DNA of 64,000 nucleotides, taken from Alphaproteobacteria bacterium. Lineage in GTDB: Bacteria > Pseudomonadota > Alphaproteobacteria > Rs-D84. Numbering within the stretch: position 1 is the first letter of the stretch; each line of letters starts with the position of its first letter. This document shows, piece after piece, positions 3,701-57,143 of the stretch. Where the stretch lies: assembly GCA_017451625.1 (NCBI GenBank), contig JAFTNY010000033.1:13800-77799 (forward strand). Direction: 5' to 3'. The notes beneath the pieces are model-generated. The model was not told the origin of the DNA. It was given only the letters and a program-made list of their open reading frames with translations, and searched no databases. The translations under genes were made by a program, and so were the position numbers.

Positions 3701-3758
3701 GTTATTTATCTTGGTGGAACGCGGTCGTACATTCTTTGCGCGCCGTCGCCATAAATAA
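702..3758 (+). CDS. RND family efflux transporter permease (AcrB/HAE1-like)
   Basis: 1018 aa with 12-TM architecture and two large periplasmic loops. The N-terminus 'MLKFFVRRPI...' is typical of AcrB-type pumps. Confidence 0.9.
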   Translation: MLKFFVRRPITTLMFVLVWVVLGLVSFPNMNIERTPSVDFPMVTATFVYPGATPEEIESQIIKRAEDAISEVSELKNIISQAYENSGFVMAEFNLGVDVNDKATEIKTKLDSLISEFPDDMNQPVVEKLNPLQESVVDIVLRGADARDLEEYVDDFLSNKITAINGVASVSVFGGRERAIRIALNPDQMAARGITIMDVVSALGSHNLNVPGGKIETSANSSNVRFIGEFASISEIENLHLTTVEGNNFTLSDVAQITDAARDIENGARYNGEPVVVASVVKSSDGNAINISNALRAKMPELQADLQSRFAGAEMMIASDSSTSVSDETDSTINAIILGVVLTVLVLLVFTRNWRSTVIAGVVIPASLIAGFFFMDGSGFTVNAMTLLAYSSALGTLVSNAIILIESALQELRAGKNPEDAAIDGTKKVAVSVLAGVGTNVVVFLPLAFMDGIVGQFMVQFGLTVVYLTLLSLMFSFTLTPMMIAKFLRLTDNKKKTRTKTVRATVVSDNSGATDSASRGWMRRWFDFQIAHPWRVVGLVFVIFIASVQLMKFVGNEFSPSTDANEITITARAPMGATFEKSESIAMQIERGLEQFDEVKSTTVKIGERGLQNITITVELVDASERNISDKLLAQKMLPAIANVADAEIQIRAGEAMSSGISSDLVLNVFGEDDAIREAYADQIIKIVNQIPEVQSAVRAQQLPAMETQFVPDQQKMNFWGVQNAYAGTTLRTALFGNDDYKYKENGEEYPIILEFAKPFKTVALFDNVYVNSQKGMVPLSALGTVRSERATPDIRREDKNRYTEIDINIGKSTMGPVQAKIQSELDKIDWAAGYYTQFGGMSDTQAESASEIGKAFMLATILTFMLLAAILNSLAHPFTIATSILTSFAGVFVMMFLSGATMNVGAMLAFVMLVGLVVNNNILVLEPTINRVGRGEDPATAMWAELTDKQNMVLMTSIAVVAGMVPQLWSVDGMKVAMGAVMIGGMLASLLFTFTLTPALFILVERGRTFFARRRHK

Positions 3759-3788
3759 AATCCCCGCCATCTGGCGGGATTTTTTATA
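3757..3788 (+). terminator. Rho-independent terminator (TCCCCGCC-loop-GGCGGGA + T-run)
   Basis: Perfect hairpin 'atccccgccatctggcgggat' followed by TTTTTT directly after the RND gene stop. Confidence 0.8.
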
Positions 3789-8859: not shown

Positions 8860-10419
8860 ATGGTACAATATATGGATAAAAATTCTGGGTTTAACATGTG
8901 GAACGCGAACAAGAACGCCACCACGCCGCGTTCGCCGCTGTCTGGTTTTCTGTGGTGGACATTGTTGTTCATCGCGGCATGGTGGACAATCGGCGCAATT
9001 ATGTCGCCGAAACAAAGTGCAACAACAACTGAAACGCAAACAGTGGCGGTGGATTTGTCGTCGGTCCCGATGACCAACGTTGCATCTGATAAAATTGATG
9101 CATCTGTCCAAGGACTGCGTATTTCTGACGTACGTCTGTCTGATTATGCGGTGTCGGCCGATTCTGATGAACGTGTTTCCCTGTTGGGTTCAGATGGTAA
9201 TTTTATCGAGGTTGGCTTACTCTCTACCGGTGCGGCTGCGCCGACCCCTGCAACGGTCTGGAATGTGAAAGACAACACCTATACTTGGCGCAGCCCAGAC
9301 GATATTGAATTTGTACGCACATTGACCACAGATGGTTATACAATCACAATCACAGACACGATTAAAAATAATTCTGGGCGCGATACCGCATTTGCGCCAT
9401 ATGCACGTATTGTTCGTGATAATGATATGAAGTCCGCTGCCGGTGTGTCAAATGGCGCGATTGCATACATCAATTCAGATGTCGAAGATGTTGCGTGGTC
9501 AAAACTGGATAAAAAATCATACGCATATTCCACAACGTCCGGTTTTGCCGGTTTCGCAGATCAATACTGGGAAACAGTTGTGTCCATAGATTCCCCAGAC
9601 CAGACAATTCGGGTCAAGAAATCTGGCGACAAATATACCACAGACACTGCCGCGGCGGCTGTTGCGGTTGCGAACGGTGCCACCGCCACAATCACGACAA
9701 ATGTATTCGTTGGCCCACGCGATCAAAACGTCTTGGATGCGGCCGCTGATCGGATTGCCGGTTTGGGTGAAACGATTGACTATGGTTGGTTTTGGTTCTT
9801 GGCGCGTCCAATGTTGTGGGTGTTAAATGGGATTCATCATGTTGTAATGAATTATGGCGTTGCGATTATTATCATGACAATTTTGTTGCGCCTGTTGATG
9901 TGGCCATTAACGCGCAAGTCATATGTTTCCATGGCGGCAATGCAAAAGATGCAGCCCGAAATGCAGCGCATCCAGAAACTGTATGCCAATGATAAAATGC
10001 GCCTGCAGATGGAAATGATGAAACTGTACCAGACGCACAAGACATCACCCATGTCGGGATGTTTGCCAATGTTGATTCAGATTCCAATATTCTTTGCGTT
10101 GTACAAGGCGTTATTGGTATCTGTTGCGATGCGCAATGCAGGTTTTTTATGGATACACGATTTATCTGCGATGGATCCATATTTTATATTGCCAATATTG
10201 ATGGGTGCAACAATGTACCTGCAACAACGCCTGCAGTCGCCAAAGACAAATAATTCTGGCAACGACGCAGTTGCCCAGACCCAGCGTATGATGCGCTGGA
10301 TGCCGGTACTGTTTACAGTAATGTTTGCATGGATGCCGGCCGGTTTGGTTTTGTATTGGACGGTGTCAAACATCTTTGGCATTATCCAGATGCAAATAAT
10401 CAAACGTCAATCCAAATAA
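8860..10419 (+). CDS. yidC: Membrane protein insertase YidC
   Basis: 519 aa with N-terminal TM, a large periplasmic domain and a C-terminal 5-TM core ('GWFWFLARPMLWVL...'). Confidence 0.9.
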   Translation: MVQYMDKNSGFNMWNANKNATTPRSPLSGFLWWTLLFIAAWWTIGAIMSPKQSATTTETQTVAVDLSSVPMTNVASDKIDASVQGLRISDVRLSDYAVSADSDERVSLLGSDGNFIEVGLLSTGAAAPTPATVWNVKDNTYTWRSPDDIEFVRTLTTDGYTITITDTIKNNSGRDTAFAPYARIVRDNDMKSAAGVSNGAIAYINSDVEDVAWSKLDKKSYAYSTTSGFAGFADQYWETVVSIDSPDQTIRVKKSGDKYTTDTAAAAVAVANGATATITTNVFVGPRDQNVLDAAADRIAGLGETIDYGWFWFLARPMLWVLNGIHHVVMNYGVAIIIMTILLRLLMWPLTRKSYVSMAAMQKMQPEMQRIQKLYANDKMRLQMEMMKLYQTHKTSPMSGCLPMLIQIPIFFALYKALLVSVAMRNAGFLWIHDLSAMDPYFILPILMGATMYLQQRLQSPKTNNSGNDAVAQTQRMMRWMPVLFTVMFAWMPAGLVLYWTVSNIFGIIQMQIIKRQSK

Positions 10420-10452
10420 AAAAATCCCCCAAACGGGGGATTTTATTTTTTC
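10420..10452 (+). terminator. Rho-independent terminator
   Basis: 'aaaaaatcccccaaacgggggattttatttttt'. Confidence 0.8.
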
Positions 10453-17936: not shown

Positions 17937-19001
17937 TTATTCTTTATATTGGCAGTCTGATGTGAATTTGACTTCAACAGTGCCTTTGTCGTCGGTATAT
18001 GTTGCTGGATTTTGTGTTGGTTTTGCCCAACAACTGGTAATGCCGGACCCCGATGATGAAACATAAGCTGACAACAACCCTGATTCGTATGCAAAGTCCA
18101 GATTGTTGTTTGCGACATCTGGGCAGGTTGCGCAAAAAGCACTAGCGCCTTGGGTGTAAAAAGATAACGGATAATTTACTGCGGACGTACGATAATACCC
18201 AGAACTAGAATCGCACGATTCAACAATAACACCACATTCAAATGCCAGATTGCTGCCCAAAATGCTTGTGGTGCCAAAACATTCGTGCGCAATCAACAGT
18301 GCCCCAGTTCCCTCTACAAAAATATTGCCTCCCATTTCGCACCAGCCTGTCGTAGACATTGAATTACTAAAATAAGTATAAAAAGCGTAAGAGCACTGAT
18401 CTGTACTACCCGAACTCATACCACTAACTGTTATATTGGTAATGATAGTACCTGAACTACAGCTCCCACTATACCAATAATCATAGCAGCTTGTGGCGTT
18501 GCTTAAACAGCATGATGTTATAGTTGTTCCCGATGATAAACAGCATGCTTGTGAATACGTGACCCCATATCCTGTCCCTGCACTACTGTTATTTGAATAT
18601 CGTAAATTACCGCTTACAGCGCTGTCATAATTAAAATTTCCATAATTTGTCGAAATGGATGTTCCCGCAAAACTTCCAGTGGCAGACGGACCTGACGATC
18701 CATAACAATTCAAACTTGTGTTGACCAAATATCCTAGTCCCACCTTGCCATCTGTACACATGCCCCACGCCCGCAGTTTGGCAAGACAGGATGCGTTTGT
18801 GATAATCGGCGAAGAGCTGGTGTTATCGCGAACACATATGGCATTATGACCTATTACACCATTTGCTGAATATGTGGTCAATTTTTCGCAAATCGCACCT
18901 GCGTACCCCGAACAATTTGGGCATGCGGTGCTGTATGTTGCTGCATCTGCACGTGTGGTTGAAAACAATGCAACCAAAAATCCCATTGTGCGCAACGTCA
19001 T
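17937..19001 (-). CDS. Secreted Cys/Ser/Thr/Gly-rich protein (member of a cysteine-rich secreted family; many N-x-S/T sequons)
   Basis: Signal peptide 'MTLRTMGFLVALFSTTRADA' (ATG 19001); ~30 Cys; 'ACPNCSGYAGAIC' motif. The ORF-track extension up to 19157 falls inside the shared 5' element and is probably not translated. Confidence 0.6.
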   Translation of the reverse strand: MTLRTMGFLVALFSTTRADAATYSTACPNCSGYAGAICEKLTTYSANGVIGHNAICVRDNTSSSPIITNASCLAKLRAWGMCTDGKVGLGYLVNTSLNCYGSSGPSATGSFAGTSISTNYGNFNYDSAVSGNLRYSNNSSAGTGYGVTYSQACCLSSGTTITSCCLSNATSCYDYWYSGSCSSGTIITNITVSGMSSGSTDQCSYAFYTYFSNSMSTTGWCEMGGNIFVEGTGALLIAHECFGTTSILGSNLAFECGVIVESCDSSSGYYRTSAVNYPLSFYTQGASAFCATCPDVANNNLDFAYESGLLSAYVSSSGSGITSCWAKPTQNPATYTDDKGTVEVKFTSDCQYKE

Positions 19002-19051
19002 GCGCCGCGCGGTGTTGCGCACATTTTGCCATCTAAAATCCAACTGACCGT

Positions 19052-19201
19052 TTGGATTCGGCAGAAAAAATGGGGGAAAAAATGCAGAATTTTGGGATAA
19101 AAATATGGGAAAAAATGCCGAATATAAACGGTGGTTTAGATTCGGCATTTTATTCAAAATTCTATGCGCAAATTATATAAACAATGTGCTTTTTTCGCAA
19201 G
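19052..19201 (-). repeat. Diverged copy (A) of a conserved ~150-bp 5' module found upstream of Cys-rich secreted-protein genes
   Basis: Shares 'acttgc(g/a)aaaaa', two 'gccgaatc(t/c)aa' boxes and 'atccca(g/a)a(a)ttctgcatttttt' with the copies at 30380 and 51289. Confidence 0.5.
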
Positions 19202-27902: not shown

Positions 27903-30317
27903 ATGGCAACATTGACACTGGGAAAATCTGTAACGACTGACGCTGTGCGCAGCAAAAAGGGCGACGAAGTATTTGTTGAACGTCGTCGTCGCGTCATTGC
28001 ACCAAACAGCAAGGAATTGCGCGAAGAACCTGTTGCGCCTGTGGTTCAACACAATGCGACAGATGAAAAATTGCGTGCTGTTTTGGCGGCTGCCAAGGCG
28101 CGCGAAGAAGAACGCAAACAACGCGCCGCCGAAGAGGCCGCCGCCCGCGCCGCACGTGATGCCGAAATTGAACGCGAAACACGTGAATATGAACAGGTCA
28201 AAGAACGTTTGGCGGCCCGCGATTCTGTCCCAGAACCTGTCGCCGAAGAAGTGGTTGTCGAAACACCTGCACCCAAGTCGCCTAAACCCGCACCAGCCCC
28301 CAAGGTGTTTACAAATAACGCCGTTGCCGGCGCGTCGCGCAAAAATCGCAATGCCGACGACGAAGATACACGTCCATCTTCTAAATTTGCAAATTCTAAA
28401 AAGGACTTCAAAAAGTCTGGCAAAATCCATCTGCATGACATTGTTATGGGTGATGGCGAAGACGATGATGAAATCGGTCTGCGCGGTGCCAATCGTCGCC
28501 GTTCCGAAGCGTCCTTGAAACGTTTTCGTGAAAAGGCACGTGCGATATTCTCGGCCCCGCAAAAGGTTGAACACGTCGTATCGCTGGGCGATACAATCAC
28601 TGTCAAAGACTTGGCCGCCGCCATGGCAGAAAAGGTTGGCAATGTTATCAAAAAATTAATGGAAATGGGCATGATGGTGTCTGTGAATCAGTCTATTGAT
28701 GCAGATACTGCTGAACTGATTGCCACAGAATTTGGTGCCACTGTCAAACGCGTTGACGTAAAACCATACGCAGACATTTTGGAACGTGAACCAAATCCAG
28801 AAAATATGAAACCACGCGCACCGGTTGTAACCGTTGTGGGGCACGTTGACCATGGTAAAACATCGCTGTTGGACGCGTTCCGCAATGCAAACGTTGCCGC
28901 CGGCGAAGCAGGTGGCATTACCCAGCACGTATCTTCATACGAAGTCAAAACAAAATCCGGTGCAATGATTACATTTTTGGATACCCCAGGGCACGAAACA
29001 TTTACTGCGATGCGTGCGCGTGGTGCTCAGATGGCGGATATTGTTGTATTGGTTGTTGCGGCAAACGATTCCATCATGCCACAAACGATCGAGGCGATAA
29101 ATCACATACGTGCCGCCAACGTGCCGTTTATTGTTGCAATTAACAAAATTGACCTGCCCGAAGCGAATCCGACCCGCGTAAAAACAGACCTGTTGCAGCA
29201 AGAGGTTCAAGTCGAAGAAATGGGCGGTGATGTTCAGTGCGTTGAAATTTCTGCGACCAAGAAAATCGGTCTGGACAAACTGGAAGAGGCCATTTTATTA
29301 CAGGCCGAAATAATGGAATTGACCGCAGATCCAGATATGTCGGCCGTTGCCTATGTTGTCGAAGCAAAACAAGAAAAAGGTCTGGGCGCGGTTGCAACAA
29401 TCCTGATGCGCCAAGGTACATTGAAAATCGGCGATGTATTTGTCGTTGGTGAAACATTTGGTCGTGTTCGTGGTTTGATTAATTCGGCCGGTGAACGTGT
29501 AAAGTCTGTTAAACCTGGGCAACCTGCGGTTGTGTTAGGGTTGAACACTGTCCCTGGGGCGGGCGACGAATTACGCGTTATGGATACCGAGGCCCAAACC
29601 CGCGAAGTCGCCGCATATCGTGCGCAAAAGGCCAAAGACAAGGCCAACGCTGTCAAACGTTCATCACTGGAAGAATTGTTTGCCAAACGCGACGAAAACA
29701 AGAAATTGATTTTGCCAATTATCTTGCGCGCCGACGTTCAGGGTTCCGTCGAAGCGATTAACGACATGGTCAAAGAAATTAACACAGACAAAGTTGGTGT
29801 TGATGTTCTGTCGTCTGGCGTTGGCCAGATTACCGAAGGCGACATCCGCCTTGCCACAGCATCTGGCGCGGTAATTATTGCGTTTAATGTTCGTGCAGAT
29901 TCGACTGTTCGCGACATGGCACGCAACAACGGTGTTGATATTCGTTATCACAGTGTTGTGTACCGCATTACCGACGAAATCAAAGAAATCTTGTCTGGTA
30001 AATTGGCACCTGAAAAGCGCGAAACATTTATTGGTTATGCGGATGTTATCGCATTGTTCACAGTGGGCAAGGGCGTTCGTGTCGCCGGTTGTCGTATGAC
30101 CGAAGGCACGATTAAAAAAGACGCTTTTGTACGTCTGTTGCGCAACAACGTTGTTGTCTATGATGGCAAGATTGGGCAACTGCGTCGCGAAAAGAACGAA
30201 GTCAAAGAAGTGTCCGGTGGCGTTGAATTCGGTATGTCGTTTGATAAATACAACGACTTAAAAGAAGGCGACCGCGTCGAATGCTACGAAGTCGAAGAAG
30301 TTCGCGCACAATTATAA
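27903..30317 (+). CDS. infB: Translation initiation factor IF-2
   Basis: G-domain '[12 protein letters not shown]', 'DTPGHE' and 'NKID'. The start at ATG 27903 has a GGAG RBS; the ORF-track start at 27882 is less likely. Confidence 0.95.
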
Positions 30318-30350
30318 AAAACATCCCGCCCACCGGCGGGATTTTTATTC
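30318..30350 (+). terminator. Rho-independent terminator
   Basis: 'aaaaaacatcccgcccaccggcgggattttta'. Confidence 0.8.
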
Positions 30351-30379
30351 TGTTTGTTGGCGTTTTGTGTGATATTATC

Positions 30380-30535
30380 ACTTGCAAAAAATCGCTGTAC
30401 GCGGTAAAATATATGGCGTACAGAATAAAAATAACTGCCGAATCCAATGGGACGATTGTTATCGGCATAATATTTAAAAATTTAATCCCAGATTTCTGCA
30501 TTTTTTATCTCCCACTTTGTGCCGAATCTAATCGT
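30380..30535 (+). repeat. Copy (B) of conserved ~150-bp 5' module upstream of Cys-rich secreted-protein gene
   Basis: ~95% identical to the reverse complement of 51289..51440. It contains the inverted repeat 'ctgtacgc-N14-gcgtacag' and two 'gccgaatc(c/t)aa' boxes. Confidence 0.6.
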
Positions 30536-31112
30536 CGGTTTGGGGTTGGCAATGGTTGTCAACGCAGCATCCGCTGCAACGTTAGTTTTTGCAAATACAA
30601 CCGGTGGAAGTATGTCAGGTTCCGGAACTTATATCAATCCAAGTTCAAACCAATACTATAAATGTTCGAATAGTTTTACCGCAGGTTGCAGTGGGTATGC
30701 CGCCGCCAGAATTTCTTATTCATCGCGCACCAGCGGCAGTGGTACTTCCACCAACCCCTACATACTAACCAATTGTTCTATATCTGCGTGTTTATGTGAT
30801 TACACTGTTGTGTATACATCCAGTGGATGCGGTTCCACCTGCAGTTATGGACTGCGCGCCACGCCGGCCAGTGCAACAGGTGATGCCCAATATCATCAAA
30901 ACACAGCATGTAATTACTGTGGTTATAATAATTATGTATACAGTTTTAGTCCCGCCCCAGGGGTGACGGTAAAACAATGCAACACATGCCCCAATGGTGG
31001 CACCAGTGATGGAACAGGCGACATTACATCATGTTGTCTTGCCGCAAATTGGACAGGTACAGACGAAAAGGGAACGTTCAAGTGTGGCAGTTCCGCATGT
31101 TATCAAAATTAA
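30519..31112 (+). CDS. Secreted Cys/Ser/Thr/Gly-rich protein (cysteine-rich secreted family)
   Basis: GTG start inside the conserved module ('MPNLIVGLGLAMVVNAASAATLVFA' signal-like). 19 Cys; 'CNTCPNGGTSDGTGDITSCC' motif. Confidence 0.6.
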   Translation: MPNLIVGLGLAMVVNAASAATLVFANTTGGSMSGSGTYINPSSNQYYKCSNSFTAGCSGYAAARISYSSRTSGSGTSTNPYILTNCSISACLCDYTVVYTSSGCGSTCSYGLRATPASATGDAQYHQNTACNYCGYNNYVYSFSPAPGVTVKQCNTCPNGGTSDGTGDITSCCLAANWTGTDEKGTFKCGSSACYQN

Positions 31113-31140
31113 AAATCCCCCGAACGGGGGATTTTTTTTA
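31110..31140. terminator. Bidirectional rho-independent terminator
   Basis: 'aaaaatcccccgaacgggggatttttttt'. Confidence 0.8.
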
Positions 31141-31845
31141 TTACAATTCAACCTTGCCGTTGGTGGCAACCAAATCTGCCATCATTTCGATATGACCGCC
31201 TGCCTCGCGTACAATTAAATCGCCGGCGGCAATTTCTGCAAAGTCCAATGGATCAGATACAAACGCATCCAGTTTGCCCGCCGCAACCCATGCCAAGTCC
31301 AACGCCGGACATCCTGTACGACGTACATCCCCAATCATTGGACGACAATCAGACGTATTATAACCAATGGTCAATTCAGATGGTTCTGAAATGTTTGAAA
31401 CCTTGATACGGGCAGAATGATATGTTGAATAAATGTATGCGCCACGTCCCGCTTCGGCATAATACAGGCGTTCATCAATCGGCGAATACACCAATGCGAT
31501 TTTCGTTTCGTCATTTGAACGCAATGCCAATGAAATTGCAAAATGCGAATTTCCGCGCACAAAATTAGATGCCCCCGACAGCGACAGTATAAATTCATCG
31601 CGTCCATCGCCTGAACGCGACACGTTCGGTGTCAACAGGCCGGCCGACGGACGAACCAGCAACAGGTCATTTAAAATACTGTCTTCGATACGGTTGGCCG
31701 CCTTTTGCACAAAATCGCGTGCGCTGCGCAAGGATTGTTGCAGATTTTCAACCTCGCCAAAATCGCGACGCAATGAAGCGGCGGTCCGTTGCAACGCCAT
31801 AAACATTTTATTTAATTCAGTTGAACCCTTGATTAACAGTTCCAT
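31141..31845 (-). CDS. Inositol monophosphatase (IMPase/SuhB) family protein, catalytic motif degenerate
   Basis: C-terminal 'LDLAWVAAGKLDAF...EAGGHI' matches the IMPase signature. The expected 'D-P-[IL]-D-G-T' metal-binding motif is replaced by 'LSLSGAS'. Confidence 0.55.
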   Translation of the reverse strand: MELLIKGSTELNKMFMALQRTAASLRRDFGEVENLQQSLRSARDFVQKAANRIEDSILNDLLLVRPSAGLLTPNVSRSGDGRDEFILSLSGASNFVRGNSHFAISLALRSNDETKIALVYSPIDERLYYAEAGRGAYIYSTYHSARIKVSNISEPSELTIGYNTSDCRPMIGDVRRTGCPALDLAWVAAGKLDAFVSDPLDFAEIAAGDLIVREAGGHIEMMADLVATNGKVEL

Positions 31846-56432: not shown

Positions 56433-57143
56433 TTATAATTGTTCTGTCGACAAAAATCCAGTATTTAATGGGTCGCCGTCGCCATCGACAATCAAATATT
56501 CTGCCACACGCAGTCCTAACGGATTATCGATACGATCTGCCCACTTTATTTGCGAATTGTCCTCTTCTTGTAATTTCAATTTGATTGTATAATCTTTTTG
56601 GCGCGTCCGTCCAGTATTATCTGCACAGAAATAGCGAATTTTTACCTGATATGCGTCTTCTGCCGCCAGATACATTATTCCGTCAAATACCACCGGACAT
56701 GTAAATTCAAAGTCTGGCATTTCACTCATCATTGCGGTAAACATTGTTGTGTTCATAAAATCCGCATAGACCGCATCTGTTGACATAATGCGAACTGTAC
56801 CGTCTTCGCCGTTCCACTTTTTATGCATTGCCTTGGCGTTGGTAAAGACTTCGTTTCTGTGGCGGATGTATTCGCGAACAAATGCGCGTTTATATCGGTC
56901 CAGATTTTCGCCCTGTGGCTGCATCTGGGTCAGTTTGATATCTTGGTCATCACGCACAGTTGTTGTTAAAAAGAATATTTGTGGTCGGTTCAATGGGAAC
57001 ATCTTGCCCAGTGTCAACGCCAAAACCCCCAGCACGACCAGCGCGCCAGCCAACACCAACGTCATAATTCTGGATATTAAAATTGGCGGTTTTACGCGGT
57101 TTTGCACGAATTTCTCCCCCTTGATTAAAACGATTGTAGACAA
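56433..57143 (-). CDS. virB8: Type IV secretion system protein VirB8-like
   Basis: Bitopic: short cytoplasmic N-terminus, one TM, NTF2-like periplasmic domain ending in the VirB8 signature 'NPLGLRVAEY'. The likely start is GTG at 57107 (SD 'aagggggag'); the TTG at 57143 is from the ORF track. Confidence 0.7.
   Translation of the reverse strand: MSTIVLIKGEKFVQNRVKPPILISRIMTLVLAGALVVLGVLALTLGKMFPLNRPQIFFLTTTVRDDQDIKLTQMQPQGENLDRYKRAFVREYIRHRNEVFTNAKAMHKKWNGEDGTVRIMSTDAVYADFMNTTMFTAMMSEMPDFEFTCPVVFDGIMYLAAEDAYQVKIRYFCADNTGRTRQKDYTIKLKLQEEDNSQIKWADRIDNPLGLRVAEYLIVDGDGDPLNTGFLSTEQL

Follow-up and report, generated by a model that had tools for sequence, protein, structure and literature searches.

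Phase variation by site-specific inversion is already known from several bacteria. In Bacteroides fragilis, the serine recombinase Mpi globally controls invertible promoters, which are carried on segments of about 170–230 bp, and invertons of this type can be found with PhaseFinder. The vsa genes of Mycoplasma pulmonis form a variable surface protein system of the same kind as vpma/Xer1 of M. agalactiae and mba/UU172 of Ureaplasma. In the latter two, one expression site is moved among silent promoterless cassettes by large inversions within the cluster (PMC2268961; PMC3047005). In the cwpV switch of Clostridioides difficile (RecV), the invertible region holds, by the authors' definition, no part of an ORF (Emerson et al. 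2009, PMC2784873). 'Partial intergenic' invertons are mostly long and shufflon-like and swap homologous domains (Chanin et al., bioRxiv 10.1101/2023.03.11.532203, citing Milman et al. 2023).

In the stretch of DNA analysed here, 64,000 nucleotides of an alphaproteobacterium of the Rs-D84 lineage (hereafter the window), three copies of a module, A, B and C, each stand 5′ of an ORF for a Cys-rich secreted protein with a signal-peptide-like start, as the first-pass annotation had noted. We read these modules as a phase-variation inverton present at multiple loci of gut Alphaproteobacteria akin to Candidatus Enterousia, in which the translation start flips and the promoter does not, and we put the probability of this reading at roughly 0.83. 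A fixed sigma-70-type promoter would transcribe into two inverted sites flanking an 84-bp segment, which a recombinase encoded elsewhere would invert. In the OFF orientation, found at all three window loci, a cassette of a Shine-Dalgarno sequence (SD) and an ATG would face the promoter and the cargo ORF would be left with neither; at copy A, the OFF transcript would additionally end at site L with a hairpin and a U-run. In the ON orientation, SD-ATG-MQKSGI... would form one reading frame with the remaining signal peptide and the Cys-rich cargo. Because the same sites occur at every locus, one enzyme could switch many genes independently, and such independent switching would produce combinatorial surface or secretome variation. 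OFF and ON denote expression states that we infer for the two orientations, as we do the action of a recombinase on the modules and the continued flipping of the window's own three copies.

Like cwpV, the modules have their promoter upstream of and outside a short invertible leader region of a surface-protein gene, with a recombinase presumably encoded elsewhere, and the intrinsic terminator proposed to form in the OFF orientation of cwpV may have a counterpart in a similar hairpin and U-run at copy A. Unlike the cwpV region, the 84-bp module segment carries an SD, an ATG and approximately 15 codons, so that the main control would fall on the translation start and the reading frame, and the module serves a whole gene family. 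With the B. fragilis invertons the modules share dispersed loci of one inverted-repeat consensus, presumably one trans-acting invertase, and a gut organism as host, the B. fragilis targets being surface structures; the module promoter, however, is fixed while the translation-initiation region would flip, and the site sequences are unrelated. The Mycoplasma and Ureaplasma systems are alike in occurring in genome-reduced, host-associated bacteria, in involving variable secreted or surface families with a conserved 5′ end, and in having sites at or inside the 5′ coding region, such that inversion decides which body is joined to the start and the signal peptide. In contrast to them, each dispersed module gene has a promoter-like site and an 84-bp ON/OFF element of its own. 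Partial intergenic invertons likewise overlap a gene boundary, so that inversion changes an end of the protein, whereas the module would be a minimal on/off cassette for a gene's first codons. In open-access text we found no description of an element that flips only an SD, an ATG and the first codons within approximately 84 bp and is repeated before a gene family, and the flipping of a translation start together with the N-terminus of a signal peptide would be, as far as we found described, a new design.

Module copies, promoter and genomic setting

A repeat search of the window returned modules B and C as inverted arms of 176 nt that are 91% complementary (Table 1). Within 30380–30535, copy B differs from the reverse complement of C by 10 mismatches in 156 positions (~94%), close to the ~95% given in the first-pass annotation. 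The diverged third copy listed there is also present: 19049–19150 is a diverged direct match to 51286–51387 (72%), which places copy A on the minus strand like C. The three-way alignment of A, B and C contains long invariant blocks, and the most conserved 21-mer, AAAAATGCAGAAATCTGGGAT, has 3 matches in the window with up to three mismatches, compared with 0.02 expected. Boxes resembling GCCGAATCYAA occur 12 times in the window (2.6 expected), and 7 of the 12 lie within the three modules. A Pfam search with the four cargo ORFs of the window returned no family, and the cargoes of A, B and C can barely be aligned to one another, indicating that conservation of the module does not depend on the cargo, as had been proposed.

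The window is ordinary chromosome with nusA-infB, lpxD-fabZ, mraY-ftsW-murG and virB8 (Pfam, ORFs), the VirB8-like protein being encoded at 56433–57143. When one genome per species was scanned for the pattern, modules were found in OZ007020.1, in a 'Proteobacteria' MAG and in Candidatus Enterousia intestinigallinarum. OZ007020.1 is the circular chromosome of an uncultured alphaproteobacterium (958,618 bp) and holds at least eight module loci. Enterousia belongs to the order Rs-D84, in which all members have reduced genomes; Rs-D84/Enterousia-like bacteria are uncultured, with genomes of approximately 0.75–1 Mb and a presumed dependence on other organisms (PMC12306168). A pattern scan of metagenomes with the conserved 20-mer gave 20 stretches, three of them relevant (L045, L047 and L062); the others were chance matches, in aminotransferase-like genes and elsewhere. 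Altogether, 21 distinct module copies were examined, and all 21 stand 5′ of genes for Cys-rich signal-peptide proteins. Look-alike bidirectional terminators of the form AAAAATCCCGCC-loop-GGCGGGATTTTTT also recur in the window (3755–3787, 10417–10449, 30317–30349, 31109–31141, 50546–50578 and others); these are ordinary intrinsic terminators that lie outside the module.

Sigma-70-like hexamers occupy homologous aligned positions in A, B and C and are also found in the relatives L001, L002, L003, L042 and L064, from which we infer an active fixed promoter. The inverted repeat previously noted in this region is present, with a spacer of N13 and not N14: CTGTACGC-N13-GCGTACAG, at 30395–30402 and 30416–30423 in copy B. 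In both the B and the C promoter, the whole palindrome (30395–30423 and 51395–51423, respectively) spans the −10 hexamer as well as the predicted site of transcription initiation; it is partly retained in L001, L002 and L042, and is missing from copy A. It may be a repressor operator that acts on top of the switch.

The two near-identical arms raise the question of whether the module is a MITE-like element or a plain paralogous duplication, the only consequence of which would be homologous recombination, for example a 20.7-kb inversion between B and C. B and C are indeed 91% identical inverted repeats 20.7 kb apart, and one contig has the junction expected from inversion of the interval between them. 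This contig, L003 (2.9 kb, 1–2906), joins the upstream flank of C (53064–51276) to the module, cargo and downstream gene of B (30380–31659) at ~97% identity, and the changeover from C-like to B-like sequence falls in 44 nt of the promoter stretch that are identical in B and C. It may represent a 20.7-kb inversion between B and C in another strain or, possibly, a chimeric assembly; it is the single contig in which exchange between module loci is seen, and its arrangement was not found in the larger contigs L063, L064 and L075, which match the window. A MITE or duplication is also at odds with the position of every copy before a Cys-rich gene, in many different neighbourhoods, and with repeats that are internal to the module. 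No terminal repeats were found at the module ends, searches of plasmids and phages gave no match, and copies were absent from unrelated loci; this likewise speaks against the former suggestion that the module is the end of a mobile element. We regard this explanation as extremely improbable.

Table 1. Coordinates of module features in the window
Feature	Position	Strand	Details
Module A	~19200-19033	-	Three-way alignment; same orientation as C
Module B	30380-30555	+	Repeat search
Module C	51440-51265	-	Repeat search
Copy A promoter-like site	19172..19200	-	TTGCGA-17-TATAAT
Copy B promoter-like site	30382..30410	+	-35 TTGCAA 30382-30387, 17-nt spacer, -10 TAAAAT 30405-30410
Copy C promoter-like site	51410..51438	-	TTGCAA-17-TAAAAT
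Copy A site L	19117..19146	-	GCCGAATCTAAA CCACCG TTTATATTCGGC; 24/30 palindromic positions; UUUUUU next in the OFF transcript
Copy A site R	19033..19062	-	Site matching
Copy B site L (promoter-proximal)	30437..30466	+	GCCGAATCCAAT GGGACG ATTGTTATCGGC; imperfect 12-6-12 palindrome
Copy B site R (cargo-proximal)	30521..30550	+	GCCGAATCTAAT CGTCGG TTTGGGGTTGGC; outer half codes for ..VGLGLA of the signal peptide
Copy C site L	51354..51383	-	Site matching
Copy C site R	51270..51299	-	~15/24 central positions match the partner site, less than in copy B; central GA kept
Copy A invertible segment	19048..19131	.	84 bp, OFF; SD GGGGGA 19072-19077 and ATG 19082-19084 on the + strand, antisense to the gene
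Copy B invertible segment	30452..30535	.	84 bp between site centres, OFF orientation
Copy B initiation cassette	30499..30513	-	SD GGGAGA 30513-30508, 6 nt, ATG 30501-30499; antisense to the gene
Copy C invertible segment	51285..51368	.	84 bp, OFF; SD GAGGGGA ~51306-51312 and ATG 51319-51321 on the + strand, antisense to the gene
Copy A cargo	17937..19047	-	Cys-rich secreted, 22 Cys; signal peptide ...MTLRTMGFLVALFSTTRADA/A
Copy B cargo	30519..31112	+	Cys-rich secreted; ORF as it stands 197 aa, no SD; after the flip 208 aa, 15 Cys; terminator 31111-31136
Copy C cargo C1	50945-51301	-	118-aa ORF in the present orientation
Copy C cargo C2	50578-50919	-	Cys-rich secreted; own SD AAGGAA and ATG; MKTFILIFVSLTITSQIAYA/A...; coordinates derived from the translation

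The antisense start-codon cassette and the orientation of the segment

Across species, conservation within the module is highest in a stretch that runs antisense to the gene and reads SD-N5-6-ATG-CAG-AAA-TCT-GGG-AT, where the SD is GGGAGA or GGGGGA; in gene orientation, this SD and ATG appear as TTCTGCATTTTTT..TCYCCC. Between the two sites, the segment accordingly holds an SD, an ATG and approximately 15 codons (MQKSGI...) on the strand opposite to the gene. The cargo genes had been given a GTG start in B, a TTG in C and an ATG in A, none of which has an SD; at the equivalent position, copy A has a CTG and L047 a TTG with a stop directly after it. The ATG of copy A does not serve as a counterpart of the other two, as it lies in site L and the B and C codons in site R, and they are not homologous. 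The GTG (30519) and the TTG fall in the inner half-site of site R, and we regard them as by-products of a recombination half-site that lies in frame. The MPNL.VGLG leader, which was suggested as one possibility to have been moved between genes, has the same origin in an in-frame half-site.

When the segment was inverted in silico in the 18 OFF copies, 17 gave an ORF of 129–386 aa that begins at the conserved ATG and continues in frame into the cargo, and the sole exception, L040, has a 1-nt indel. The in-frame ORFs obtained for the window measure 208 aa for copy B (MQKSGIKFLNIMPITIVGLGLAMVVNAASA/AT...), 129 aa for copy C (MQKSGIKFLNIMPITIVGLGVVLGTCQTAQA/IL..) and 386 aa for copy A. The flipped products have a K-rich basic n-region, a hydrophobic core and an AxA-like end. 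The same operation on three ON copies shrank the ORFs to 20–41 aa.

These three copies, L017, L023 and L042, have the ON orientation naturally, and the 18 others are reversed relative to them. Within the single chromosome OZ007020.1, the segment in L017 and L023 is opposite to that in L008, L015, L028, L029, L034 and L040. Both ON copies of this chromosome have the order promoter, site, SD-ATG-MQKSGIFTKIKTAII, site, and remaining signal peptide with the Cys-rich protein, all in a single frame; the ORF of L023 has 352 aa, and that of L017 has 68 aa before a frameshift into a 205-aa ORF (long-read assembly). The third, L042, which has the promoter type of window copies B and C, encodes P0005, a protein of 220 aa with the start MRKSGKLFWDFMPNLIVGL... 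behind AAGGAGA. The paralogous loci L034 and L017 of OZ007020.1 are set apart by just such an inversion: their cargo 5′ ends are 98.9% identical over 529 bp; their 84-bp segments are identical at 46 of 84 positions as found and at 81 of 84 after one is reverse-complemented. Unflipped segments match at 79/84 positions in an OFF/OFF pair and at 83/84 in an ON/ON pair.

We found no flipped version of the window loci B, C and A among the sequences searched: the assemblies L003, L063, L064 and L075 are OFF at the B locus, the 15 listed members of the 17 in the B-protein cluster all have OFF-type N-termini, and the copy A homologue P0156 is in the OFF orientation. A 233-aa member of the B-protein cluster was considered as a candidate ON form and rejected, its extra length being upstream read-through. 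In the present orientation, the cassette ATG opens decoy ORFs of 32–99 aa that run back through the promoter, and public gene calls include such OFF-state decoys. A protein query built from aligned ON-state leaders likewise returned only short decoys of this kind.

Could the module instead be a static promoter and 5′-UTR, with translation from the GTG or TTG at site R, the boxes acting as operators, and the antisense SD-ATG a coincidence or a relic? The conserved promoter-like hexamers would fit, operators are typically palindromic boxes, PGAP-style annotations of homologues (P0003 and P0006) begin at the site R codon, and a single orientation is found in all B-locus assemblies. Such a cassette leaves unexplained, however, the natural copies with a reversed segment, the in-frame reversal in 17 of the 18 OFF copies, and the conservation of the antisense SD, ATG and codons above all else in the module. 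It would also require initiation without an SD in any copy and at a codon that is replaced or followed by a stop as described above for copy A and L047. We consider it very unlikely. What stands of the earlier proposal of a shared promoter/5′-UTR cassette is that the module is regulatory and shared: it begins with a conserved sigma-70-like promoter and is found only before Cys-rich secreted-protein genes. It does not appear to be static.

Folding of the predicted leader of copy A gave, in the OFF orientation, a long hairpin at the end of site L followed by UUUUUU, and the ON leader had no U-run. The OZ007020.1 copies have an OFF hairpin and U-run resembling those of copy A; the leaders of B and C have a hairpin and no clear U-run. 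The OFF-only hairpin and U-run suggest that, in some copies, termination as in cwpV may act in addition to the translational OFF state. A different explanation of the same folds is an RNA attenuator, in which alternative hairpins of box 1, the middle and box 3 would act as terminator and antiterminator, perhaps with a leader peptide MPNLNHRL, and control read-through with no rearrangement of DNA. In its favour, copy A and the copies of OZ007020.1 have a terminator-like hairpin formed by site L with the U-run, and box 1 can pair, with co-variation, with a region past box 3. Paired recombination sites would be expected to co-vary just as much, though, and the reversed natural copies require inversion of the DNA. 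The modules match no Rfam family, a scan of the window giving only two tRNAs above the gathering score, and the frame and stop of the leader peptide are not conserved (copy A lacks the stop, and in L042 the peptide is out of frame). Attenuation is hardly probable as the explanation of the module, and any termination may be an additional level of the inversion switch itself rather than a rival to it.

Paired sites and the search for a recombinase

Each module contains two inverted 30-bp imperfect palindromes with a 12-6-12 layout and the half-site consensus GCCGAATCYAAW, the full site pattern being GCCGAATCYAAW-N6-WTTRGATTCGGC and the centres lying 84 bp apart. The site centres were assigned by matching the two sites, followed by a fixed axis. 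The two 'gccgaatc' boxes reported earlier as direct repeats ~80 bp apart do exist, but they are spaced by 84 bp and are half-sites of the two inverted recombination sites. The spacing of the sites is 82–84 bp in all copies (84 in those tabulated together, 83 in L042 and 82 in L073), and its conservation suggests a helical-phase constraint.

The central dinucleotide is the same in both sites of a pair in all 19 of 19 copies and co-varies by lineage: the B/C type has GA, copy A and most copies of OZ007020.1 have AC, and L008 and L019 have TC. The first two spacer positions may differ between paired sites; these positions are part of the cargo-side outer half, which doubles as coding sequence. 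In B and especially C, the paired sites match at 15–17 of 24 central positions, and these two copies might therefore be sluggish or locked. Serine invertases need a matching, non-palindromic central dinucleotide, and for tyrosine recombinases the identical core required is usually longer; the central-dinucleotide rule gives a hint of a serine enzyme. With respect to the features of Hin/Gin-type systems, the central dinucleotide matches (GA, AC or TC), no invertase gene lies beside or inside the segment, and 84 bp is too short for a Fis-dependent enhancer. A segment of 84 bp is also a very tight loop for synapsis, which counts against the inverton reading.

No recombinase gene was found in the window by Pfam on 30 ORFs, by a pattern search or by tblastn with approximate Hin and XerD queries. 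Across all loci, the pattern and tblastn searches gave a single positive, L047, a contig from a human gut sample in which the module lies approximately 6 kb from a gene for a 198-aa Resolvase+HTH protein. This contig also encodes a 542-aa large serine recombinase adjoining a HaeIII-type restriction-modification (R-M) system. The ~198-aa protein belongs to a family of Pin-like serine recombinases that are 68–96% identical among the 120 clusters listed, several of which are labelled Alphaproteobacteria MAGs, and one member comes from an Enterousia MAG (GCA_046881865.1). In its other contexts examined, 16 loci in three distinct gene neighbourhoods, this recombinase is found in R-M/GmrSD islands with no module within 6–10 kb, and for this reason we do not claim it as the invertase. 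At L047 4519–9347, L065–L072 and L076–L083, the ~198-aa recombinase always stands beside changing R-M/GmrSD genes (HaeIII R-M, EcoRI-type methylase, D12 methylases), an association that looks like a defence-island hotspot.

Cargo proteins, possible variant modules and implications

Of 17 tabulated cargoes, 16 have a Cys content of 5.7–11.3%. Cargo B has few homologues, and those with names are labelled Alphaproteobacteria MAGs; exact look-ups of the window's proteins gave no match on record, and an AlphaFold2 model of cargo B from 7 sequences was unusable (mean pLDDT 31.6). At copy C, the second gene, C2, begins 26 nt past the stop of C1 and ahead of a terminator at 50546–50577, and the two probably form a two-gene unit behind switch C (50578..51301). 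The contigs L045 and L062 are near-identical to L047 in promoter and segment, with 1 mismatch in approximately 200 nt, and their cargo genes differ exactly from site R onward; these are either very recent paralogues or the result of cargo exchange at the site.

A possible variant of the module is found in L073 (2864–2975) and L074 (493–604), which are syntenic with window copy A and have the same two sites 82 bp apart. Here a fixed SD and ATG belonging to the gene lie downstream, and in place of the SD-ATG the segment holds a promoter-like TTGACT-17-CAAAAT facing away from the gene. Speculatively, these loci would represent the same system in a form that flips a promoter.

A more extensive reading, to which we would give somewhat less than an even chance, is that of a start-codon cassette inverton of 84 bp (eight helical turns) acting genome-wide, with at least eight loci in a 0.96-Mb chromosome and three in the window. 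One trans-acting recombinase would set combinatorial ON/OFF states of a large, fast-evolving Cys-rich family in uncultured, genome-reduced gut Alphaproteobacteria (Rs-D84/Enterousia relatives). Use of the same sites would extend to the promoter-carrying version (L073) and to inter-locus inversions that re-pair promoters with cargoes (L003), and antigenic variation like that of Mycoplasma would have evolved independently.

If the modules switch as proposed, such a density of independent switches on secreted Cys-rich proteins would make variation of the surface and secretome central to the lifestyle of these bacteria, under pressure from immunity, phages or partner cells, and the switches would mark which proteins face outside. 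For annotation, genes in the OFF state are mis-started or truncated by gene callers, and decoy ORFs of 20–99 aa are called on the other strand. An 84-bp element with only an SD, an ATG and the first codons would be near the lower size limit for inversion and would control translation and frame rather than transcription. As a small self-contained module, it would be of interest as a synthetic-biology part once its recombinase is known.

Two further observations concern genes of this type. In L064 (2886–3458, minus strand), and also in L063 and L075, an insert of approximately 850 bp lies between infB and module B and codes on the opposite strand for a 190-aa Cys-rich secreted protein with its own SD and ATG. 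The insert is missing from the window at 30318–30379, indicating strain-level gain or loss of such genes beside the switch. The tails of the cargoes (30519–31112, 17937–19047 and 50578–50919 in the window, and L015, L025, L034, L047 and others) are alike, approximately ..TG(S/T)D..G(T/S)(F/W).C.S..(C/Y)Y(Q/K/Y)(N/S), and finish in aromatic residues though the cargoes are otherwise unrelated; this common tail could be a C-terminal sorting or anchoring signal.
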